64,000 nt of DNA from Clostridia bacterium (GTDB lineage: Bacteria; Bacillota; Clostridia; Oscillospirales; UBA644). Positions 57 to 44,264 of the stretch are shown here, one piece after another; the first letter of the stretch is position 1; each line of letters begins with the position of its first letter. The translations under genes and the position numbers were made by a program. Where the stretch lies: NCBI GenBank assembly GCA_017427285.1, contig JAFRTE010000020.1, forward strand, positions 30,849 through 94,848, read 5' to 3'. The notes under the pieces were generated by a model. That model was not told where the DNA came from. It saw only the letters and a program-made list of their open reading frames with translations, and did not search any database.

Positions 57-917
57 ATGAAAGTTGGCGTAAGCTCTTACAGTTTCGGACAGTATATGGG
101 CAACACCCATGCGAATATTTTTCAGGTAATAGACAAGGCGAAGGAGCTCGGATTTTCTTCGATAGAATTTATCGACGTTTACGCTCCCGAGGGCAAGGAT
201 AAAATCGAGCAGGCAAAGGAAATACGCGCATATGCCGCAGATAAGGGACTTGAAATCTCCGCATACACTATCGGCGCGGACCTTTTGAACAACGATCCCG
301 AAGAGCAGTTTGAAGCGCTCAAAAAGCAGCTTGCCATAGCTCAGTCGCTCGGCGCTCCGCGTATGAGACACGATATTACCGGCGGTTTTCCCGCTTCTAA
401 AAAAACGGAACGCGGATTTGACGACTGCATAAAGATCGTTGCTCCCCGCGCGCGCAGAGTTACGGAATACGCGGAAAGTCTCGGCATAAAAACGATGTTT
501 GAAAATCACGGCTTTTTCTGCCAGGACAGCGACCGTGTCGAAAAGCTTCTCAACGCCGTAGCTTCCGATAATTTCGGGCTTCTTCTCGATATGGGCAACT
601 TCCTATGCGCAGACGACGACCCCGCAAAAGCGGTCGGCAAGCTTGCGCCGTATGCGCTCCATGTACACGTTAAGGACTTCTTTGTAAGAAACGGCAATCT
701 GCCGTCTCCCGGTATGGGATGGTTCGGCTCCCGCGCAGGCAACTATCTTCGCGGCACGATAGTCGGCCACGGCGACGTACCCGTAAAGCAGTGCATAAGA
801 ATACTTAAAAACAGCGGATATCAGGGCAATTTCTCGATCGAGTTTGAAGGCTGCGAAGAAAACATCTTTGCGCTCAAAGCCGGCCTTGCAAACCTCAATT
901 CGTATTTCCCCGACTGA
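57..917 (+). CDS. sugar phosphate isomerase/epimerase family protein (xylose isomerase-like TIM barrel)
   Basis: ORF 45..917. ATG at 57 lies 11 nt after AGGAG (41-45). The translation shows the TIM-barrel pattern of this family (GFSSIEF, MFENHG, HVHVKD, SIEFEG). Confidence 0.7.
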   Translation: MKVGVSSYSFGQYMGNTHANIFQVIDKAKELGFSSIEFIDVYAPEGKDKIEQAKEIRAYAADKGLEISAYTIGADLLNNDPEEQFEALKKQLAIAQSLGAPRMRHDITGGFPASKKTERGFDDCIKIVAPRARRVTEYAESLGIKTMFENHGFFCQDSDRVEKLLNAVASDNFGLLLDMGNFLCADDDPAKAVGKLAPYALHVHVKDFFVRNGNLPSPGMGWFGSRAGNYLRGTIVGHGDVPVKQCIRILKNSGYQGNFSIEFEGCEENIFALKAGLANLNSYFPD

Positions 918-3377: not shown

Positions 3378-4718
3378 TTAAAAATCTGTTTTTCCGTATA
3401 TCTCGTCAAGATATTTTGCGCAGCTACCTTTGAGAGCGTCGAGAGCGGGGATAACGCTTTTATCGCCGATCGACAGCCTGTACATAAGAGCGCCTTCTGC
3501 GGAGCAGAAAAGATCGTGCACCGGGAATACTTCGCGAAGAAGCCAGAAAGCGTATGCAACGTAACGGAATTCGCCGTGTATTCGAGGCATTTCGCCGCCG
3601 ACGGTCTCAAAAGCAACGCTCTTATAATCTTTGATCGCCTGCTTTATGTCTTCAAGGGCGGTTGATTTTGCGAAAACTATCGTGCCGTACCAGTTCATAA
3701 GGTCGTTTCTGTCACATCCGTGAGAATCGGAAACGCCAACTATAGGTATACGATATCCCTGCGCGCGCAGCTCGGCGTATTTTGCAAGCTGCAGCTCGTT
3801 TGAATCGATCTCGTGTTTATGGTATCCGCCGATAAGCTCGTATGCGGTGTAGTCCTTCTTTTTGAGAATGTATTCGGTGAGTCTGTCGCTGATATAATAT
3901 CCGTTTCCGACGCGCCAGTAGGGGTGGCAGAAAATGCTTATGCCGCCGCCTTCGCGTATTTTTTCAAATACCCATTTACAGGAGGCGTACATATATATTT
4001 CGTTTACCGCGGTCGGGTCGGGATAATCGACTACGGTTTTCATTATTTCTCTTACTTCTGCGTAATATTTTTCCTTATCGCTTTCAATGAGCGCGTTGAC
4101 GGAAAACGAACCGCCGAAATTTACCATATGCACGGCGTTTTCAGGAGGATGGACCTCCTCGCCGTGATAAAGCGCCATATCGGTGCCGAAGCTGTCGTAA
4201 AACGCTTTCGCCCTTACGGACGGTTCGTAATTTCTGTGGTCCGTTACAGCCATATAGTCAAAACCGACTCTTCTGTATGACGAAACAACGTAAAGCGCGT
4301 CTTCCCTGCCGTCCGAGCCGTATGTATGAAGGTGCATATCGCCTCTGTACGGGCGCAGCGAAAAAAGATCGTCGTTTAAGGCGTAGATATTGAAGCATTC
4401 TATATCCGAATATCTTTCGCCGTCGGGCTTTCTGAGATATACGTTGTATTCCTGCTCGGGGCCGATATCCGCTGAAAATTTCAGCGCTCCGTCTTTATCG
4501 GGACGAACTGCGACAACTGTTTCCTTTCCCTGACCGTTTTGCATTACGGGACACAGGGTTAAGGAATATTCGCAGTTTTCGAATTTCAGCTTTTCGTAAA
4601 GAGGGATAATGCAAAAGTCCGCCTTAGCGTTTGCTCGGACCGCCTTCGGCAGTATTTTATAGTGAGTCTGCGATTTTTTTATGGGACTTTTTATTGCGTT
4701 GTATGCTTCTATCGTCAT
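3378..4718 (-). CDS. PHP-domain metal-dependent phosphoesterase family protein
   Basis: 446-aa ORF with a His/Asp ligand series typical of PHP domains: GDMHLHTYGSDG, AVTDHRNY, GEEVH, FCHPYW, GVSDSHG. An N-terminal region of about 120 aa has no motif I recognise. Confidence 0.6.
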   Translation of the reverse strand: MTIEAYNAIKSPIKKSQTHYKILPKAVRANAKADFCIIPLYEKLKFENCEYSLTLCPVMQNGQGKETVVAVRPDKDGALKFSADIGPEQEYNVYLRKPDGERYSDIECFNIYALNDDLFSLRPYRGDMHLHTYGSDGREDALYVVSSYRRVGFDYMAVTDHRNYEPSVRAKAFYDSFGTDMALYHGEEVHPPENAVHMVNFGGSFSVNALIESDKEKYYAEVREIMKTVVDYPDPTAVNEIYMYASCKWVFEKIREGGGISIFCHPYWRVGNGYYISDRLTEYILKKKDYTAYELIGGYHKHEIDSNELQLAKYAELRAQGYRIPIVGVSDSHGCDRNDLMNWYGTIVFAKSTALEDIKQAIKDYKSVAFETVGGEMPRIHGEFRYVAYAFWLLREVFPVHDLFCSAEGALMYRLSIGDKSVIPALDALKGSCAKYLDEIYGKTDF

Positions 4719-4733
4719 AATATCACCCCGTTT

Positions 4734-5978
4734 TTATTCGTGCGTTATTTCCGGCTCAGCCGTTCCGTTGATAAATTCTTTTGTGATAACGATCCTGCGT
4801 ATTGATTTGTCGGACGGGGCGTCAAACATGAGCTTTGTCATGAATTTTTCCACGATCGTCCTCAGTCCGCGCGCGCCCGTACCTCTCTTTACCGCCTCGT
4901 CGGCTATCTCTTCAAGAGCGCCGTCGGTAAATTCAAGGTCTACGCCGTCAATGGCAAGAAGCTTTTTATACTGTTTTACAAGCGAGTTTTTCGGCTCTTT
5001 GAGTATCCGCAAAAGCTGATCTCTGCTGAGATTGTCTACCGAAACTATTACCGGCAGACGTCCGACAAGCTCGGGGATAAGACCGTATTTTATAATGTCG
5101 TGAGATTCCGCCTGCTTTAAAAATACGCTCGGATCGGTCTCATTTTTCATTTTGACATCCGAAGTAAAGCCGATCGCCGAGCCCGCGGTCCTTTTTTTGA
5201 TAATGTTTTCAAGGCCTGCGAAAGCGCCGCCGCAGATAAACAGAATATTTGTGGTGTCTATTTTTATAAATTCCTGATTCGGATGCTTTCTTCCGCCCTG
5301 CGGAGGAACGTTTGCGACCGTTCCTTCGAGTATTTTAAGAAGCGCCTGCTGAACGCCTTCGCCCGAAACGTCTCTCGTTATGGACGGATTTTCTGAACGC
5401 CTTGATATCTTGTCTATCTCGTCAACGTATATAATGCCTCGCTGAGCCGCTTCGATATCGAAGTCCGCCGCCTGAATAAGCCGCAAAAGAATGTTTTCAA
5501 CGTCTTCGCCTACATAGCCCGCTTCGGTAAGCGTTGTGGCGTCGGCGATCGCAAAGGGAACGTTGAGCACTTTTGCGAGTATCTGCGCCATAAGCGTTTT
5601 GCCCGAACCGGTAGGCCCGAGCAGAAGAACGTTTGACTTTACTATCTCAACGTCGTCTTCTTTACTGTCGAATATTCTTTTGTAGTGGTTGTAAACGGCT
5701 ACCGAAAGCGTTATTTTCGCTTCTTCCTGCCCTATAACGTATTCGTCAAGCTTCTGTTTGATCTCTGCGGGTGTTTTTATATCCACCCGCATACTGTTTT
5801 TCTTTTCGTCCGTTTTCTGCTTTTTTATTGCATCAAGATACTCAACGCAGGTATCTATGCAGTCGCTGCAGATAAACACGTCGCTGTTTATGCCGGAAAG
5901 AAAGATTTTCTCCCCGTCAATGTTTGTCTGCCCGCAAAACGAACACTGCTTTATATCTGTCGGTGATTTTTTCGGCAT
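4734..5978 (-). CDS. clpX: ATP-dependent Clp protease ATP-binding subunit ClpX
   Basis: Zinc ribbon CSFCG...CSDC, Walker A GPTGSGKT, Walker [11 protein letters not shown] place the start at ATG 5978 ([16 protein letters not shown]), 1 nt after the clpP stop. The longer ORF to 6020 would overlap clpP by 41 nt. Confidence 0.93.
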
Positions 5979-5979
5979 A

Positions 5980-6561
5980 TTATCTCTTTGAGATGACCTT
6001 GTCAACAAGTCCGTATTCAAGAGCCTGCTGCGCAGTCATAAAATTATCTCTTTCGGTATCTTTTTCGATTATTTCAAGCGGTTTTCCCGTATTTTCGGAA
6101 AGAATACGGTTTAAATCGCTCTTTATTTTGATTATTCTGTCCGCATGGATCTTTATATCCGTTGCCTGGCCCTGAAATCCGCCGAGGGGCTGATGTATCA
6201 TTATTTCGCTGTTGGGCAGGGCAAATCTCTTGCCTTTTGCACCGGACGAAAGAAGGAATGCACCCATAGAGGCAGCCATACCGATGCAGATGGTAGAAAC
6301 GTCGCATTTTATATACTGCATGGTATCGTAAATTGCCATACCTGCGGTTATTGAGCCGCCGGGGCTGTTGATATAAAGACTGATATCCTTTTCGGGGTCT
6401 TCGTTTTCGAGGAAAAGAAGCTGCGCGACGACGAGATTTGCCGAAATATCGTTTACCTCTTCGCCGAGGAATATAATTCTGTCTTCAAGAAGACGCGAAA
6501 AAATATCGTATGTACGTTCACTGTGTCCGGTCTGTTTTACAACGTAGGGAACGAGACTCAT
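5980..6561 (-). CDS. clpP: ATP-dependent Clp protease proteolytic subunit ClpP
   Basis: MSLVPYV N-terminus, active-site Ser context [11 protein letters not shown], His context MIHQP. ATG 6561 sits 8 nt after AAGGAG. The GTG at 6570 in the ORF track overlaps that RBS. Confidence 0.95.
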
Positions 6562-6600
6562 AGTAATCACTCCTTTTATTATTTATGCGCGGTTTTGCGG

Positions 6601-7914
6601 TTATTCGGATTTTTCTTCCTTTTCTTCCGCTTTTTCGGTTATTTCGGCGTTTGCCTTAACAAGCTCGAATGCTTTCTGAATGGTAAGGTCTTTTGAGATA
6701 TTGAGCGTAGCGTAATCGCTTACGATATCCTTCATCTCTACCTTCATTTCGTCGGCAAACTTCTTATATTCGTCGTCTATTTCTTCCTGGCTTATAACTA
6801 TGCCTTCAAGCTCTGCGATCTTTTCGAGAGCGAGACGGATCTTAACGTCGCGGTCTGCATTTGCTCTGAAAGCTTTTCTCATCGATTCGGCTGTCTGGCC
6901 CGTGATCTGCATATACTGCTCCATGCTTATGCCCTGGGAAGCCATACGGGACGCGAACTGATTGAAGGCGGTGTCTGTTTCGCTTTCAAACATACATTCG
7001 GGAATGTCCGCTTCGCAAAGATCCGCTATCATTTCGTAAAGCTTGTTTGATACTTCGCTGTCCGCGGCTTTTTCCTTGCGTTCGGCAACTTTCTTTTCGA
7101 TATCGGCTTTAAGCTCGTCAAGAGTGTCAAAATCGCTGACATCCTTTGCAAGCTCGTCGTCTATTTCGGGAAGCTCTTCGCGCTTTATATCGTGAAGCTT
7201 ACATTTGAATTCGGCCGCTTTGCCTTTAAGGTCTTCGGCGTGGTAATCTTCGGGAAAAGTAACGTTAACGGAAAATTCGTCGCCGGCTTTTTTGCCGATC
7301 ATCTGATCTTCAAATCCGGGGATGAACTGACCGGAACCGAGGGTAAGATTGTATTTTTCCGCTTTGCCGCCTTCGAAGGGAACGCCGTCTACGAATCCTT
7401 CAAAATCGAAAACAACTCTGTCGCCGTCCTTTGTAACGTCGTCGTCTTCAACGTCTATTACTCTCGCCTGGCGTTTCTGATATGATTTCAGTTCGTTTTC
7501 GATATCTTCGGGCGTAACGTTGACCGAGGGCTTTTCGACCTTGAGTCCTTTATACTCTTTTACGGATACTTCGGGTTTAACGGTTACTTTTACTTTGAAT
7601 ACAAGGCCCTTCTCGTCGTCGAATACGGGCTCTGCGCTCGGTCTGTCAACGGGGTCTATTCCCGCTTCCTTTACGGCGTCTTCGTATGCTGCGGGGAAGA
7701 GAGCTTCGAAAGCGTCATCGTAAAATACTTCTTTGCCGTACATTTTTTCAATCATTTTGCGGGGTGCTTTTCCTTTGCGGAAACCGGGAATGGCGATTTT
7801 GCCGACATTTTTTCTGTAGGCGCCTTCGACCGCTTTTTCAAATTCGTCGGAAGGAACGGATATTTCCATTTCTACAACGTTTTTTTCTTCTTTTGTTACC
7901 TTTTCTAAGATCAT
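6601..7914 (-). CDS. tig: trigger factor
   Basis: Ribosome-binding signature GFRKGKAP and an FKBP-type PPIase segment GDRVVFDFEGFVDGVPFEGG. Position upstream of clpP-clpX fits. ATG 7914 is preceded by GGAG at 8 nt. Confidence 0.9.
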   Translation of the reverse strand: MILEKVTKEEKNVVEMEISVPSDEFEKAVEGAYRKNVGKIAIPGFRKGKAPRKMIEKMYGKEVFYDDAFEALFPAAYEDAVKEAGIDPVDRPSAEPVFDDEKGLVFKVKVTVKPEVSVKEYKGLKVEKPSVNVTPEDIENELKSYQKRQARVIDVEDDDVTKDGDRVVFDFEGFVDGVPFEGGKAEKYNLTLGSGQFIPGFEDQMIGKKAGDEFSVNVTFPEDYHAEDLKGKAAEFKCKLHDIKREELPEIDDELAKDVSDFDTLDELKADIEKKVAERKEKAADSEVSNKLYEMIADLCEADIPECMFESETDTAFNQFASRMASQGISMEQYMQITGQTAESMRKAFRANADRDVKIRLALEKIAELEGIVISQEEIDDEYKKFADEMKVEMKDIVSDYATLNISKDLTIQKAFELVKANAEITEKAEEKEEKSE

Positions 7915-39077: not shown

Positions 39078-39923
39078 ATGAACAGAAAGATCACGCTTCT
39101 TGACGGCGCGGTAGGCACCACGCTCTGGGCAATTGCGGAATCTCACGGCGCAAAAAAGGAGCCGGTATGGAAATATAATATCGATCATCCCGAATTTGTA
39201 AGGGAGCTTACGGAAAAATATCTTGAAGCCGGCAGCGAGATAATACTCGCAAACACTTTCGGCGCAAACGGTCCCGCGGTTAAGTATTCGTCGCCGTATG
39301 ACCCGAAAGACGTTATAACGGCGGGCGTAAACATCGCAAAAGATGTGCTGAAAGGATCATCCGCAAAGCTTTGTATGGCTGTAGGACCGCTTACGCAGAT
39401 ACTCGAACCTTACGGCGACCTCGAAGAGGACGAATGCTTCGCAATTTATGAGGAAATGATCTCCGCAGGCATGGAATCGGGCTGCGAAATGATAATGGTC
39501 CAGACTTTTATGGATCTTGCCATGATGCGCATTGCCGCAACGGTGGCAAAAAGATACGGAGTACCCGTATTTTGCACGATGACTTTTGAAAAAGCGGGCA
39601 AAACCATGTTCGGCAACTCCGTTTCGGACGTTATAGATACGCTCGAACCGCTCGGGATCGACGCGATCGGACTAAACTGCTCTCTCGGCCCCGATCTTGC
39701 GCTGCCAATAATAAAGGAATTTGCCGAAAAAACGACGCTGCCCATAGTTTTCAAGCCAAATGCAGGCAAACCGATACTCAGTGCCGACGGCTCGACTTCA
39801 ACTGCGTACAGCGCGGAGCAGTTTGCGGAGGACATCAAGCCCGCACTCGAATACGTTTCGTATATCGGCGGCTGCTGCGGCTCCGACGCAACATATGTTA
39901 AGGAAATAAAGAAGCTGCTGTAA
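39078..39923 (+). CDS. homocysteine S-methyltransferase family protein
   Basis: ITLLDGAVGT start, ANTFGAN, and a C-terminal GGCCG zinc-binding motif. Confidence 0.8.
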   Translation: MNRKITLLDGAVGTTLWAIAESHGAKKEPVWKYNIDHPEFVRELTEKYLEAGSEIILANTFGANGPAVKYSSPYDPKDVITAGVNIAKDVLKGSSAKLCMAVGPLTQILEPYGDLEEDECFAIYEEMISAGMESGCEMIMVQTFMDLAMMRIAATVAKRYGVPVFCTMTFEKAGKTMFGNSVSDVIDTLEPLGIDAIGLNCSLGPDLALPIIKEFAEKTTLPIVFKPNAGKPILSADGSTSTAYSAEQFAEDIKPALEYVSYIGGCCGSDATYVKEIKKLL

Positions 39924-39950
39924 AGCTGTAAAAGCGTAATAAAAATAATT

Positions 39951-39988
39951 CCCTCTTTGTATTAAATTGCAAAGAGGGTCTATTTTCT
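39951..39988 (+). terminator. rho-independent terminator
   Basis: Stem CCCTCTTTG/CAAAGAGGG followed by TCTATTTTCTG. Confidence 0.75.
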
Positions 39989-40021
39989 GAATGCGGTCAT
40001 AATTATTTCATAATTGTTTTA

Positions 40022-40050
40022 TTGACAAAACGCAATGATTATTGTATAAT
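40022..40050 (+). promoter_or_regulatory. exact-consensus sigma-70 promoter of tRNA-Ser
   Basis: TTGACA (40022-40027), a 17-nt spacer, then TATAAT (40045-40050), about 30 nt upstream of the tRNA. Confidence 0.8.
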
Positions 40051-40079
40051 ATATATCGCCGAAGCAAAAGTGAATATTT

Positions 40080-40167
40080 GCAGGAATATCGAAGCGGTCA
40101 TAACGAGGCGGTCTTGAAAACCGTTTGGCCAAAAGCCACGGGGGTTCGAATCCCTCTTCCTGCGCCA
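40080..40167 (+). tRNA. tRNA-Ser (anticodon UGA), class II with long variable arm, CCA encoded
   Basis: I folded it by hand. Acceptor is GCAGGAA/TTCCTGC. Anticodon arm is GCGGT-CTTGAAA-ACCGT. The variable arm is GGC-CAAAA-GCC. T arm is GGGGG-TTCGAAT-CCCTC, discriminator G, then CCA. It is very similar to Bacillus tRNA-Ser(UGA). Confidence 0.9.
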
Positions 40168-40335
40168 GAATTAAATGACAGCCATTTGGCTGTCATTTAA
40201 TTATTTGTATTGAATATGGGATTCGAACCCGAGAGAGTTTCGGCGTTAAGCAAAGTCTCCTGCGGAGAGTTTGCAGTCGAAATCGCGAAGAGCATTGCTC
40301 TGAGCGGACAGTATGCGAGCAAAGCGAAGCAGACG
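40146..40335 (+). repeat. tandem unit 1 (190 bp): tRNA 3' end + terminator block R1 (40146-40206) plus spacer S1 (40207-40335)
   Basis: It repeats at +190 with 4 mismatches that I found by eye (40207, 40226, 40261, 40328). Confidence 0.9.
40171..40207 (+). terminator. terminator hairpin after tRNA-Ser (copy 1)
   Basis: 13-bp perfect stem TTAAATGACAGCC-ATTT-GGCTGTCATTTAA followed by TTATTT. Confidence 0.8.
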
Positions 40336-40525
40336 TCGAATCCCTCTTCCTGCGCCAGAATTAAATGACAGCCATTTGGCTGTCATTTAATTATTTTTAT
40401 TGAATATGGGATTCGGACCCGAGAGAGTTTCGGCGTTAAGCAAAGTCTCCAGCGGAGAGTTTGCAGTCGAAATCGCGAAGAGCATTGCTCTGAGCGGACA
40501 GTATGCGAGCAAAGCGACGCAGACG
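40336..40525 (+). repeat. tandem unit 2 (190 bp): R2 (40336-40396) plus spacer S2 (40397-40525)
   Basis: R2 is an exact copy of the last 22 nt of tRNA-Ser (TCGAATCCCTCTTCCTGCGCCA) plus the 39-nt terminator region. Confidence 0.9.
40361..40397 (+). terminator. terminator hairpin copy 2
   Basis: Identical hairpin, 190 bp downstream. Confidence 0.7.
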
Positions 40526-40588
40526 TCGAATCCCTCTTCCTGCGCCAGAATTAAATGACAGCCATTTGGCTGTCATTTAATTATTTTT
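40526..40588 (+). repeat. terminal partial unit R3 (63 bp)
   Basis: Exact copy of R2, after which the sequence diverges into unique DNA. Confidence 0.9.
40551..40588. terminator. terminator hairpin copy 3, also positioned to terminate the convergent rubrerythrin operon
   Basis: Identical palindromic hairpin followed by TTATTTTT. It lies 26 nt from the rubrerythrin stop on the other strand. Confidence 0.7.
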
Positions 40589-40613
40589 CAGTTTAATACT
40601 ATTACAGTTTAAC

Positions 40614-41150
40614 TCAATAATTCTCTGCTTTAACTTCGAAATATGCCTGCGGGTGATTGCATACGGGGCAGACGTCGGGAGCGGCCTCGCCGTAGTGGAT
40701 ATGTCCGCAGTTTGCGCATTTCCATACGGTCATCGTCGGTTTTTTGAAAGCTTTGCCCGAATTGATGTTTTCAAGAAGCTTTAAATATCTTGCTTCGTGC
40801 TCTTTTTCAATTGCCGCTACGCCTTCGAAAAGCGCCGCGATGTCGTCAAAGCCCTCTTCTCTTGCGGTCTTCGCAAAATCCGCATACATCTGAGTCCACT
40901 CAAAGTTTTCGCCCTGAGCCGCGGCGAGCAGGTTTTTATCCGTTTTTGCAACGCCGCCGTTAAGAAGCTTATACCAGAGTTTTGCATGTTCTTTTTCGTT
41001 TGCCGAAGTTTCCGCAAAAATGTTGCTTATCTGAACGTAGCCGTCCTTTTTTGCCTGTGAAGAATAATACTGATATTTAACGCATGCCTGAGATTCGCCC
41101 GCAAATGCGGTTTCGAGATTTTTTTCGGTTTTACTGCCTTTGAGTTCCAT
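40614..41150 (-). CDS. rbr: rubrerythrin
   Basis: N-terminal ferritin-like diiron domain (two ExxH motifs: [16 protein letters not shown]) and a C-terminal rubredoxin-like CANCG...CPVC. Confidence 0.9.
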
Positions 41151-41176: not shown

Positions 41177-42700
41177 TTATTTTTCGGTTATAAATCTGTG
41201 CGTGCTTACTCCGTCTATTTCCTCTGCTTTCGCATAAACGACTTCTCCGTCAAAGCCGAGCTTATCCTTTAACTGCGAAAGATGCTTTTTCATATCGGGA
41301 AGGTGCGTTACGGAAATAACCCTTGCTTTGTAAAGCGCGGCGACGGCAATAAATTCGCTTAAGGCGACGGACGCTTCGTCAAACGATGTAGACTGATAAA
41401 CCTCGTTGAAAAGCAGCATGTCGTTCGGCTTTAGCATGTCAAGGAAGCCCGAAACGGTTTCGACCTCTTCTTCAAAACGTCCCTGACCGACGTCGAGAGC
41501 CGTAAAGTATGCGTATACGCCGGCAACGGGCGTGATTACTGCTTCTGTGCAGGGGACGGGCAGAGCCGCCTGTCCGAGCAGCTGAATAATGCCGACAGCC
41601 CTTAAAAATACGGTCTTTCCGGCGTTGTTTTTACCCGTTATGATATACGCCGCGCAGTCTTTGCCGAAAATTGCGTCGTTAGGGACAAGCACGTCGCCGG
41701 GACGTTCGTTTCTGTTTTTCTGATACTGTTTGAGCGAGAACCACAGATCGTATATGTTTTTGCACTCGAATCTGTTGCCTTCCGTGCAGAATTCGGGAAT
41801 GCACATCGGAAGACCGAGCCGCTCGTAAGTACGTTCGAGTATCGCCGCAAAGTCGTAAAAGTAAAATCCGTCGCGTATCTTGTCAAACGGTTTTTTCATC
41901 TGATAAGTTACCGATTCCATAAATGAAACGAGCTTTATCATGCTTCTTTCCGCAAGGAACTGGAGCTGCTGATCGGAATCGACGTCAAAACCGATCGAAA
42001 TAACGGTTTTGTCCTTGTCTTTAAGTACGGGAGTGTCAGGACCGTAATTGTAAGGATCGGAAGTAAGCGCAAACATCTCGCAGTCCAGGATACGGATATA
42101 TTTGTCAAGCTTTGTTAAAATAACGAACGACGTGTTGAGATTGAGCGATTCGGCAAGCTCGGAAGCGACTGCTTTAAGCTCTGCGAATGCGGGATTTTCG
42201 ACCTGCGCATTGACAAATTCGCGCATTTTCAGCATAAGCTCGGAGCGAAGGTCTTTTTTGGCGAGCGTTTTGCCGTACTGTTCGTAAATTTCCTGTATCT
42301 TCAAAATACAGTCGGCAAGTGTCTGGACGGTGAATATGGAGGACTCTCTGTCCGAAGTGGTGGCTCTGCCGCCGGTTGTTGTGATTATAGACGACGCGGA
42401 CGTTTTAACGATCTTGAGCGCGTCTTCAAGCTTGAGATTAAGTCTTTCGATAAGCTCAAACTCGTGAAGAAGCGAAGCGTTTCGTCTGAAATCGTCGAGT
42501 ATCTCTTTTCTCCAGATAAGATTTTCCATATCCTGTTCGGGATGGCTTAAAAGCGCAAACATCTTTTTCTGAAGGATTATATCTACCGTAACGCCGCTTA
42601 CGACCTCGTCAAGCAGCAAGCTTTTCATGGACATTTCAAGCTGTTTTGACGATTCGGTTTTTGAAGGGTTTTTGTAAAGAAGATCAAATTCGGGATACAT
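41177..42700 (-). CDS. MutS domain V-like ATPase, paralog B (no mismatch-binding or Smr domain)
   Basis: Walker A ITGKNNAGKT, Walker B-like MLLFNEVYQSTS, His-loop SVTHL. ATG 42700 lies 1 nt after the upstream stop, with GGGAGG inside the upstream gene. Confidence 0.7.
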   Translation of the reverse strand: MYPEFDLLYKNPSKTESSKQLEMSMKSLLLDEVVSGVTVDIILQKKMFALLSHPEQDMENLIWRKEILDDFRRNASLLHEFELIERLNLKLEDALKIVKTSASSIITTTGGRATTSDRESSIFTVQTLADCILKIQEIYEQYGKTLAKKDLRSELMLKMREFVNAQVENPAFAELKAVASELAESLNLNTSFVILTKLDKYIRILDCEMFALTSDPYNYGPDTPVLKDKDKTVISIGFDVDSDQQLQFLAERSMIKLVSFMESVTYQMKKPFDKIRDGFYFYDFAAILERTYERLGLPMCIPEFCTEGNRFECKNIYDLWFSLKQYQKNRNERPGDVLVPNDAIFGKDCAAYIITGKNNAGKTVFLRAVGIIQLLGQAALPVPCTEAVITPVAGVYAYFTALDVGQGRFEEEVETVSGFLDMLKPNDMLLFNEVYQSTSFDEASVALSEFIAVAALYKARVISVTHLPDMKKHLSQLKDKLGFDGEVVYAKAEEIDGVSTHRFITEK

Positions 42701-42701
42701 T

Positions 42702-44264
42702 TTACTTTTCCTCCCTCTTCTTCTGTATGCGTTCAAGCATCTGCTCTACCGTCATATCGTATTTCAGAAGAATATCTCTTGCAAACGATGAGTTCTGAGT
42801 GCTGAGCGGTACGATCTTGTATAGCCGTTTTCCTGTTTTTTCGTCGTTTAACGCCGTAAGTACGCCGGCGCTGTGCGGTCTGTCCGCCGTTTCCGCGGCA
42901 TAGTCTTTAAGACTGTGAAGGTGCGTTACGAAAAGCCCCGAAATATCGTGTTTGAGCACTTTGTCCACAAGTTCGGTCGAAAGCTTATAAGCGATATCCG
43001 CTTTTGTTGACGAATAAGTTTCGTTGAAAAGCGCAAGACTCTGTCCGTCCGTAACATCCCGCAAAATTCTTTCAACTCTGCCCTGTTCCTCAACAAGTCT
43101 GCCGGAGTTGTCGTTGTATTCCTCAACGGGGAAGTGAGTAAACATGCGCTTCATTATTTTTATCTTCGCCCTTTTTGCGGGAACGTGGCCGCACGCCTGG
43201 AAAAACAGCTGGCAAAGACCGACTGCGGAAAGATAAATCGTTTTTCCGCCCGCGTTCGGGCCGGTGATAAAGAAAAACGAGCTTTTTTCGTAAACGTAGT
43301 CGTTATATACGACCTGATCGGGCGCAAGACCTCTTTTGACAAGGAAAAGACTGTAAAAATCAAGGATATCCGTTGTCTCGGCAGGCGTTGCCTTTACGCA
43401 GGCAAAGCCCTTTTCGTTTATTTCCCTGAAAATTCTCGCAAAGCCGATAACCGCGTCGAGTTTTTTTATCAACCCGAGCCATGCGGTATCGAAAACGTCT
43501 TTGTATTTCTCGTGGAACGTATCGATATTTTTGAAAATATCGTAATATAGAGTGTAAAGCGATTTGAAAACGGGGCGCGTAAACTCTCTCGGCTGATGTA
43601 CTGCCGGCGCATACGCCTCCGAAACGTCAAGCCCGAGTCTGCCGGTAATTCCGGCAAGGTTCATCATAAGCGATTTGTCCTCGGTTTTGGGGATTATGCT
43701 GTTTTCTATATTCTGTCCGCGCGAAAAATATCTGTTTAAGCGTATTTCGCCTATCGTTTCAAGACTTTCGCGAAGACCCGCCATATCTTTGAGTATCGCT
43801 GCAAGCTCCTGTTTTTTGCTGTCGGAATACGCTTGAGAAAGAATTGCTTTTACTGATTCGGAAAGATCGCTTTTGCCCAGCGCTTCCGCGCCGTCCATAA
43901 ATTTCCTGTATACTTCCGTAAATTTCTCTATTATGAGAAATGTTTTCATCGTTGCCATTTCGGGGACGTTTTTAAACATTTTAAGCTCGTAAAGCAGGTT
44001 GAGATCCCACAGATCGGAGCGCAGATCGCAAAACAGCGAGAAAAATCCGTCGTTTTTGATAAGATCGCCGACGATATCCGCGCGGTAAGAGATTATTTCG
44101 CTGTCGCTGCAAAACTGATTGAGTATTTCGAGCGTTGCCTCTTCCTGCTCTTTTGACGAGAGAAAAGCGTTAAGAAGCTCCTCAAGCTGCATGTCAACGG
44201 CAACGCAGTAGTCAAGCGGTTTTACATCCGGCTGAGCTTTTATCGGATCGAAAAACAGTTTCAT
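42702..44264 (-). CDS. MutS domain V-like ATPase, paralog A (domain III-like N-terminus, no domain I, no Smr)
   Basis: Walker A ITGPNAGGKT, Walker B-like LALFNETYSSTK, His-loop FVTHL. The N-terminus carries the MutS core-like segment ISYRADIVGDL. Confidence 0.7.
   Translation of the reverse strand: MKLFFDPIKAQPDVKPLDYCVAVDMQLEELLNAFLSSKEQEEATLEILNQFCSDSEIISYRADIVGDLIKNDGFFSLFCDLRSDLWDLNLLYELKMFKNVPEMATMKTFLIIEKFTEVYRKFMDGAEALGKSDLSESVKAILSQAYSDSKKQELAAILKDMAGLRESLETIGEIRLNRYFSRGQNIENSIIPKTEDKSLMMNLAGITGRLGLDVSEAYAPAVHQPREFTRPVFKSLYTLYYDIFKNIDTFHEKYKDVFDTAWLGLIKKLDAVIGFARIFREINEKGFACVKATPAETTDILDFYSLFLVKRGLAPDQVVYNDYVYEKSSFFFITGPNAGGKTIYLSAVGLCQLFFQACGHVPAKRAKIKIMKRMFTHFPVEEYNDNSGRLVEEQGRVERILRDVTDGQSLALFNETYSSTKADIAYKLSTELVDKVLKHDISGLFVTHLHSLKDYAAETADRPHSAGVLTALNDEKTGKRLYKIVPLSTQNSSFARDILLKYDMTVEQMLERIQKKREEK

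Follow-up and report, generated by a model that had tools for sequence, protein, structure and literature searches.

A tandem array behind tRNA-Ser(UGA) in gut Clostridia, read as a candidate tRNA-trailer RNA module built like the RtT repeats of Escherichia coli

In a 64,000-nucleotide stretch of a Clostridia bacterium genome (contig JAFRTE010000020.1; hereafter the window), a tRNA-Ser(UGA) gene is followed by two 190-bp units that end by repeating exactly the tRNA 3′ end and its terminator. With moderate confidence, this array is regarded as a tRNA-trailer RNA module with the architecture of the RtT repeats of the E. coli tyrT-tyrV operon, the RNA being predicted from sequence, and as part of a sizeable family in gut Clostridia. 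An initial annotation of the same DNA had preferred integrase-less mini-elements and had listed, as an alternative, small RNAs of one family in which the tRNA 3′ end and terminator are used again; the alternative is favoured here on account of a conserved fold, the constant use of the tRNA strand and the RtT-like design. As to the role of the array, the best guess is that its RNA acts in cis or in trans and is connected with tRNA-Ser maturation or with factors recognising tRNA 3′ ends. What is new is the RtT-type architecture in gut Clostridia; RtT itself is known yet poorly understood and, to our knowledge, has remained an unexplained oddity of enterobacteria only since its description decades ago.

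The tRNA gene (40080-40167, + strand), in which CCA is encoded, is the only tRNA that ARAGORN reports in the whole window and scores 53.7 bits with the Rfam tRNA model. The promoter of this tRNA-Ser cassette, TTGACA-17-TATAAT at 40022-40050 (+), has 12/12 consensus matches and is the sole strong promoter-like site within 39800-40800; gene and promoter stand as initially annotated. A 61-nt block termed R, made up of the last 22 nucleotides of the tRNA, from T loop to CCA, and the intrinsic terminator behind them, is present in three exact copies on the + strand, at 40146-40206, 40336-40396 and 40526-40586. Tandem Repeats Finder gives a period of 190 and 2.3 copies, and the terminal 22-mer of the tRNA, TCGAATCCCTCTTCCTGCGCCA, is present three times with 0 matches in 100 shuffles, in agreement with the recurrence at 190-bp spacing noted before. 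The terminator hairpins lie at 40169-40202 (15 pairs and a T-rich tail), 40359-40392 and 40549-40582. That a hairpin is present had been annotated correctly, but its stem comprises 15-16 pairs rather than 13. Between the R copies lie the unit interiors S1 (40207-40335, +) and S2 (40397-40525, +), of 129 nt each, and alignment confirms that they differ at 4 positions. The units begin 40 nt past the CCA of tRNA-Ser, right behind its terminator and on the tRNA strand. The roughly 5 kb around the array contain neither integrase nor transposase, and no further copy of the array is present in the 64-kb window. Rfam searches over the window region and related loci returned no known RNA family except tRNA, and no tRNA-model match covers the units even at E up to 10.

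A patchy similarity of S to the 5′ part of the tRNA and its leader had also been reported. It is at chance level, as 128 of 500 shuffles (global alignment) and 158 of 500 (local alignment) score as high, and the candidate derivation of S from a diverged leader plus tRNA 5′ part was rejected. The related suggestion of tandem tRNA duplicates whose 5′ parts were replaced may fit a distant origin, but no significant similarity remains.

The earlier analysis overlooked that each spacer opens with GGGATTCGA, the reverse complement of TCGAATCCC, with which R starts and which belongs to the T loop and the 3′ strand of the T stem. In unit 1 this 5′ arm, a1, lies at 40218-40226 (+) and, when the unit is folded alone, pairs with nucleotides 1-9 of R copy 2 (40336-40344) as the closing helix P1. 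The corresponding arm of unit 2, a2, lies at 40408-40416, and no 5′ arm follows R copy 3. In the predicted lone-unit fold, the 5′ arm closes onto the 3′ R of its own unit with several hairpins inside, and the tail UCUUCCUGCGCCA (40345-40357), ending in CCA, is single-stranded; the z-score is -7, terminator included. Each unit holds two to four hairpins and ends with the exact last 22 nt of the tRNA and the same terminator. In unit 1 the interior comprises P1b (40228-40237, +), a short hairpin capped by a GNRA-type loop (GAGA in the window), in the middle of which the window copies have C opposite A instead of a pair; P2 (40238-40282, +), a long hairpin in which P2a joins 40238-40245 with 40275-40282 and P2b joins 40250-40260 with 40264-40274; and P3 (40285-40305, +), GCGAAGAGC-AUU-GCUCUGAGC, with tandem G-A/A-G mismatches. 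Two differences between the copies fall in this fold: A-to-G at 40417 in S2 turns a P1 A-U pair into G-U, and T-to-A at 40451 is within the P2 loop. In 19 of 31 units a stretch of at least 8 nt is exactly complementary to the last 22 nt of the same unit, and it invariably lies 38-61 nt from the unit start; with shuffled tails the mean length was 5.7 nt.

A long imperfect palindrome (40128-40244), formed by the variable and T arms of the tRNA, the terminator and the 5′ end of S, is centred on the terminator loop at about 40186, and its 27-nt arms (40128-40154 and 40218-40244) are 78% complementary. They pair with one another when the whole read-through transcript is folded in silico. The 5′ half of the unit was also tried as an inverted tRNA beyond the T arm and rejected, the window comparison being not significant (p about 0.14). 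For the 5′ 70 nt of type A units, a type found in relatives, the match to inverted tRNA is marginal (p about 0.02-0.04) and is kept only as an idea about origin.

The predicted structure was compared in two alignments. Related loci and contigs set beside the window carry labels such as L011 or L043, and S1 is homologous to units in L018, L042, L102, L252, L253 and L255. The window-type alignment, A2, combines relatives from a genome scan (L018, L042, L102) with others reached through orthologues of the neighbouring methyltransferase (L252, L253, L255). In A2, the proposed structure P1/P1b/P2/P3 has 96.2% of cells paired, against at most 53% when partners are slid. P1 is 94% paired and P2 96%, and four P2b pairs are changed on both sides between the window lineage and the relatives. 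The only variants of the P1b loop are GAGA, GGAA and GGGA, the latter two in relatives. P3 is 100% paired but invariant in the 7 sequences and carries no covariation information. For the commonest type, an A/D alignment of 10 species, RNAalifold gives a closing helix and two hairpins, with compensatory two-sided changes in 12 of 33 pairs; in type A units the hairpin equivalent to P2 is located after GCGTTAAG. G-U cells exceed A-C cells, about 27 to about 10 (both alignments; own tally of the pair tables), and terminators with T-tails occur on the + strand only. Thus, the sense of the RNA is taken to be that of the tRNA.

The wider family was delimited by an exact-match scan for the 22-mer with one genome per species, which returned 109 loci. 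The exact copy ends a predicted tRNA-Ser(UGA) gene in 90 of these and is an orphan in 19. Nearly all loci come from gut metagenome-assembled genomes labelled Clostridia, Eubacteriales, Candidatus Scatosoma or Christensenellales, together with one labelled Bryobacteraceae. Unit evidence by combined criteria was found behind tRNA-Ser(UGA) in 51 of the 95 species-level loci with enough downstream sequence, and the 5′-arm motif lies 40-63 nt past the tRNA in 26 of the 109. Units in relatives measure 100-370 bp, begin 40-60 nt past the tRNA, always on its strand, open with (GAA)GAGGGATTCGA and close with ...GAATCCCTCTTCCTGCGCCA plus a terminator. About ten types of interior, partly mosaic, can be distinguished, and in the sequences searched every interior homologue follows a tRNA-Ser 3′ end and has the same strand as the tRNA. 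Different types stand in tandem at L035, L120 and L107. The 16-nt 3′ end is exact across many species while the interiors are divergent, and many units are truncated or have decayed 3′ ends. The types are related chiefly through their common ends and a module of GCGTTAAG plus hairpin. A type A covariance model matches window positions 40216-40357 end to end, but the match is weak, with 21.3 bits and E = 0.011, compared with 14.4 bits for a tRNA T arm by itself. A metagenome scan with the S-internal 16-mer CGAAATCGCGAAGAGC gave 120 chance matches and no homology. At L117, about 110 nt upstream of an exact R (2271 after reorientation), the T arm of an orphan tRNA half is directly interrupted by a 75-nt unit interior (CACGGG | insert | TCGAATCCC), and neither terminator nor 5′ arm lies in between.

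The array is a real feature of the genome and not an assembly artefact, a concern raised initially, since independent assemblies of the same species carry the units or break in them and since the related species L252 has two diverged tandem units with three different terminators. Contigs from other samples with identical flanking proteins contain two units (L011), one unit (L012), or a scaffold gap or contig end inside the repeat, and the L253 contig, whose methyltransferase protein is identical to that of L252, has one. The variation in copy number that the initial annotation had suggested looking for may thus exist among strains and relatives, but the counts of one or two, that of the window included, are apparent only, as these are short-read assemblies in which repeats may collapse; S1 and S2 can nevertheless be told apart. 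A practical consequence is that the units disrupt short-read assemblies and draw spurious 50-codon gene calls.

The array is flanked by a homocysteine S-methyltransferase gene (39078-39923, +) and a rubrerythrin gene (40614-41150, -). S occurs at the same locus in six related lineages (L018, L042, L102, L252, L253, L255) with about 80% identity, where flanking genes share 85-90%, and in all of these but L253 it was located between methyltransferase and rubrerythrin genes. Because the neighbourhood is the same and the divergence is similar to that of the flanking genes, S has been passed on by vertical descent within the clade of the window. Methyltransferase orthologues at or below 81% identity stand in another gene context and have no tRNA there. 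BLAST comparison with L018, L042, L102, L252 and L255 shows that the cassette of promoter, tRNA and array (39959-40599) is inverted relative to the related species, with a 15-nt inverted repeat at its borders (39959-39973 and 40585-40599). As the cassette is oppositely oriented in all five relatives (window 39979-40607 compared), the inversion is placed in the window lineage. Insertions directly behind the tRNA were seen in two cases. In L018 (about 5050-6770), 1.7 kb of unrelated sequence with a 382-aa helix-turn-helix (HTH)-type gene sits in the terminator hairpin loop, and S is cut to 35 nt. In L252 and L253 (L252 about 4710-5880), a 1.2-kb insert carrying 23S_rRNA_IVP and DUF3784 genes follows immediately after CCA.

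The closest architectural counterpart is found in the E. coli K-12 tyrT-tyrV region, the sequence of which was examined together with the Rfam RtT family (RF00391). The repeats lie 3′ of tyrV and between tyrT and tyrV. Each unit is 178 bp long and ends in AATCCTTCCCCCACCACCA, a copy of the tRNA-Tyr 3′ end from the T loop, and an annotated small open reading frame (ORF), tpr, lies inside the unit. The Rfam RtT model matches four E. coli units, and its curated structure closes GGGGAAGGAU with AUCCUUCCCC, leaving a tail that ends in CCA. RtT RNA and the rttR repeats of the operon were reportedly described by Bosl and Kersten in 1991 (cited in PMC3318445). According to the citing article, rtT RNA is derived from one repeat unit of the E. 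coli tyrT-tyrV operon (PMC3318445).

In both systems the repeats follow a tRNA gene immediately and share its strand, head-to-tail, with a period of 178 bp in E. coli and 190 bp in the window, and the tRNA 3′ end, from the T loop on, is exactly reproduced at the end of each unit (19 and 22 nt, respectively). A 5′ segment complementary to the 3′ strand of the T stem and acceptor stem closes the RNA and leaves CCA on a free tail, in the window as a predicted fold, and each unit contains a small, doubtful ORF, tpr in one case and the 50-codon ORF in the other. The two differ in the tRNA concerned, which is Tyr in E. coli and Ser, Met or Arg in the Clostridia, members of a different phylum; in the strong intrinsic terminator that follows every R of the window, whereas none is evident by eye between tyrV and the first E. 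coli unit; in the length of the free tail (13 nt in the window, 8-9 nt in E. coli); and in the interiors, which in Clostridia are modular and of many types. At gathering threshold the RtT model has no match in 18 related loci. Because neither sequence similarity nor a covariance-model match to RtT was detected, the units are filed as RtT-like and not as members of RF00391. The likeness is architectural, and homology is not demonstrated. The trailer-derived sRNA sponge 3′ETS-leuZ of E. coli offers a further comparison, being a functional RNA cut from the trailer of a tRNA transcript, a function that for the window is only proposed. However, 3′ETS-leuZ has no copy of a tRNA 3′ end, no closing helix and no tandem repetition.

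The same design was seen behind other tRNAs that happen to lie in the compared loci, namely tRNA-Met(CAU) in four species (L047, L053, L093, L115) and tRNA-Arg(ACG) in one (L033). In these units the 5′ arm is complementary to the 3′ end of their own tRNA, sometimes up to a TGG that complements CCA and stands right after the T-tract. At L033, where tRNA-Arg lies at 696-771 (minus strand), three units stand in tandem. An interior module (GAAAACAGTTGATAACTGTTTTC ... GACTATGCGACTTGACAGGGCA) is common to L041 and L054, where it is found about 240 nt past tRNA-Ser, and to L047 and L053, where it comes after tRNA-Met. Units behind three tRNAs in a phylum distant from E. coli, with folds backed by covariation, point to a general design or a general mode of origin, and they supply many independent sequences for the study of trailer-RNA function.

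A working model can be proposed for the trailer module. Since no promoter of their own can be recognised, transcription of the units probably starts at the very strong tRNA promoter and reaches them by read-through; a promoter-like site matching at 9/12 positions lies inside the terminator and is weak. The copied 3′ end and terminator would allow the trailer RNA to be matured at its 3′ end like a tRNA, while pairing of the 5′ arm with the copied 3′ end would give a compact multi-branch fold with a free CCA tail, the helix between arm and R stabilising the RNA. Rather than by site-specific integration, the number of units may change when the 61-nt R copies undergo unequal homologous recombination or when replication slips between them. 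The inverted 5′ arm itself probably arose by inverted duplication or template switching around the terminator and TTCGAA, a palindrome in the T loop, because the arm is symmetric about the terminator and the junctions fall within TTCGAA. Such an origin would account for a T-loop junction with no integrase involved.

However, several observations weigh against a maintained trailer RNA. The units are dispensable, as they are missing at 44 of the 95 loci and truncated in some (L018, L024, L056). Promoters resembling those of sigma-70 (at least 9/12) are not enriched upstream of units (8%, with a background of 5.5%), and a strong intrinsic terminator separates the tRNA from each unit. When the 536-nt read-through transcript is folded whole, R1 is paired with a1 and R2 with a2 across the terminator in the minimum-energy structure, and the tRNA T arm is left unfolded. 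The covariation of the window type rests essentially on two lineages. Lastly, the Rfam RtT model finds no match in 39800-40800 even at E up to 10.

The trailer-RNA interpretation can be extended, though this is possible rather than probable, to a widespread and unrecognised class of tRNA-cognate RNAs carrying sense and antisense copies of the 3′ end of the tRNA ahead of them (Ser, Met and Arg in gut Clostridia, Tyr in E. coli). These would act as a conformational switch or decoy that couples to read-through either tRNA 3′ maturation or protection against factors attacking tRNA 3′ ends, and would arise recurrently by template switching at the palindromes of T loop and terminator.

Among the rivals, the one that survives best, though it is considered unlikely, takes the units as non-functional debris. 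An inverted duplication around the terminator palindrome, together with a partial tandem duplication of the tRNA, would have been kept and amplified by recombination between R copies, and any RNA made would have no role. The symmetry of the inverted arm about the terminator loop is what such an event would leave, as is the left arm of Met and Arg units, a full inverted tRNA 3′ end with TGG right after the T-tract. The marginal match of type A units to inverted tRNA, the frequent truncation and 3′ decay, the 44 unit-free loci and the lack of unit promoters all fit as well. Debris would not be expected to retain hairpins through compensatory changes in two independent unit types, or to keep a hairpin loop within GNRA and a 16-nt 3′ end exact in many species whose interiors have diverged. 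The excess of G-U over A-C on the tRNA strand also speaks against it.

Improbable by comparison is a purely cis-regulatory switch, in which the 5′ arm pairs back with the 3′ strand of the tRNA T arm and acceptor stem, blocking or marking the precursor, and the downstream R acts as a decoy that frees the tRNA. This arrangement is the one that the 536-nt fold predicts, since R1 pairs there with a1 and R2 with a2; moreover, truncated units (L018, L024, L056) retain the 5′ arm beside the terminator, and the last R copy never precedes an arm. Yet the tRNA folds co-transcriptionally, ahead of arm synthesis, and in L252 and L253 the 1.2-kb insert parts the tRNA from intact units. The curated Rfam structure of RtT has the register in which the arm pairs with its own R, and a switch of this kind leaves the conserved interior hairpins without a role. 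Because the whole-transcript fold does pair R with the following arm, a switch or decoy role in tRNA maturation is kept as a live variant of the trailer-RNA reading.

The initial annotation read the array as att-S-att-S-att, that is, as a row of cis-mobilizable elements of only 190 bp, lacking an integrase and added one after another at a T-loop att site by an integrase supplied in trans. This is very improbable, even though the identity block does run from T loop to CCA, strains have apparently one or two copies, mixed unit types stand in tandem (L035, L120, L107), and the tRNA is a hot spot of integration in the clade. Williams, in 2002, is reported to have described att sites in tRNA genes with anticodon-loop, T-loop and 3′-end sublocations; the window block likewise runs from inside a tRNA loop to the 3′ end. 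The one integrase-bearing element confirmed at this same tRNA shows what an integrated element looks like here. In L043, the 6.9 kb between the tRNA and an orphan half contain genes for an HTH_17 protein and for a tyrosine integrase (PF00589, 78 bits), and the identity block of such elements, roughly 55 nt, starts in the anticodon loop and repeats kilobases apart. As the tRNA variable arm in L043 now differs from that of the orphan, the working 3′ half came from the element. Orphan tRNA 3′ halves that start in the anticodon loop (CTTGAAAACCG...), with foreign DNA ahead, are present in at least 15 species. In L043, L032, L073 and L097 the units are found on the chromosomal (attR) side of the insertion, where the original 3′ end has stayed, and are therefore not part of the integrated elements.

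The window block differs from these sites, which start with CTTGAAAACCG, span kilobases and come with an integrase, in that it starts in the T loop, recurs at 190-bp spacing and has an inverted partner in S. That partner of R is located about 110 nt upstream, at the start of S, whereas directly upstream of R copies 2 and 3 there is no inverted core-type half-site (GCAGACG|TCGAAT; no counterpart of the T-stem 5′ strand). No integrase lies within the 5 kb or so around the array, S holds the same locus in six lineages, and, in the sequences searched, S was not found away from the 3′ end of tRNA-Ser(UGA) or beside an integrase, although copies in such places had been suggested as a check. A scan of viral contigs for ATCCCTCTTCCTGCGCCA, from the tRNA 3′ end, gave 4 unrelated high-GC chance matches and no phage attP. 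The E. coli RtT repeats have the same T-loop junction, and we know of no integrase associated with them. The mini-element claim is thus not upheld: S is inherited vertically, has a conserved predicted fold and, in the sequences searched, occurs only at tRNA-Ser ends, and the real att block of the clade starts in the anticodon loop. A lesson for those annotating genomes is that direct repetition of a tRNA 3′ end from the T loop onwards does not on its own count as evidence for an integrase att site.

Integration at tRNA-Ser(UGA) in this clade was observed at L043 (800-7820), L019, L020, L029, L032, L044, L046, L073, L086, L097, L100, L101, L104 and L114. In L041 and L054, the acceptor stem of the working tRNA-Ser is compensated (GCAGGCT/AGCCTGC) and is mismatched to the orphan half behind it.

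Cis-mobilizable elements (CIMEs) resemble the array in having direct repeats of a gene 3′ end that flank a recombinase-free segment, in tandem. In the ICESt1/ICESt3 system, CIMEs span kilobases, are derivatives of integrative elements and need a cognate integrase that acts on the same att site. Units of the window kind differ in measuring 100-370 bp, in being structured (predicted) RNAs, in vertical inheritance and in that the integrases of the clade use an att block starting in the anticodon loop. Repeats of the miniature inverted-repeat transposable element (MITE) or REPIN kind are likewise short and ORF-free, bounded by inverted repeats and rich in stable hairpins, but the units are not dispersed, with no other copy in the window; their arms match the adjacent tRNA (Ser, Met or Arg), and no target-site duplication logic or transposase was seen.

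Hardly credible is a new kind of non-autonomous mobile element that homes to tRNA 3′ ends through complementarity, its left arm resembling a primer-binding site or guide and its arms matched to the host tRNA. Behind tRNA-Met and tRNA-Arg, and in some tRNA-Ser units, the left arm does complement the cognate 3′ end in full, starting with TGG, an interior module is common to tRNA-Met and tRNA-Ser units, and the distribution is patchy. Set against this, no reverse transcriptase, recombinase or transposase lies near any examined unit, inheritance in the clade of the window is vertical, and local inverted duplication is a simpler account of the symmetry of the arms about the terminator.

The weakest proposal, to which almost no weight is given, is that each unit encodes a 50-aa small protein analogous to the Tpr ORF of the E. 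coli repeats; gene callers do report the ORF (40216-40368, +, with its twin at 40406-40558), intact in both units, but no Shine-Dalgarno sequence or other ribosome-binding site precedes it in the window, all three S1/S2 differences within it are non-synonymous, and its ATG start is ATC or TAG in relatives. A Tpr-like gene was rejected on these grounds, and the ORF is probably not coding. The initial statement that the array has no coding sequence, integrase or transposase holds for recombinases but not as to ORFs, these noncoding-looking calls being present.

Two features of the flanks concern other sequences. Strains differ at window positions 39915-39940 by an 8-nt tandem duplication right after the methyltransferase stop codon (CTGCTGTAAAGCTGTAAAAGCG vs CTGCTGTAAAAGCG). 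On the minus strand at 41177-44264, adjoining the rubrerythrin gene, two neighbouring genes (519 and 520 aa) overlap by 35 nt, and their sole Pfam match is MutS domain V.

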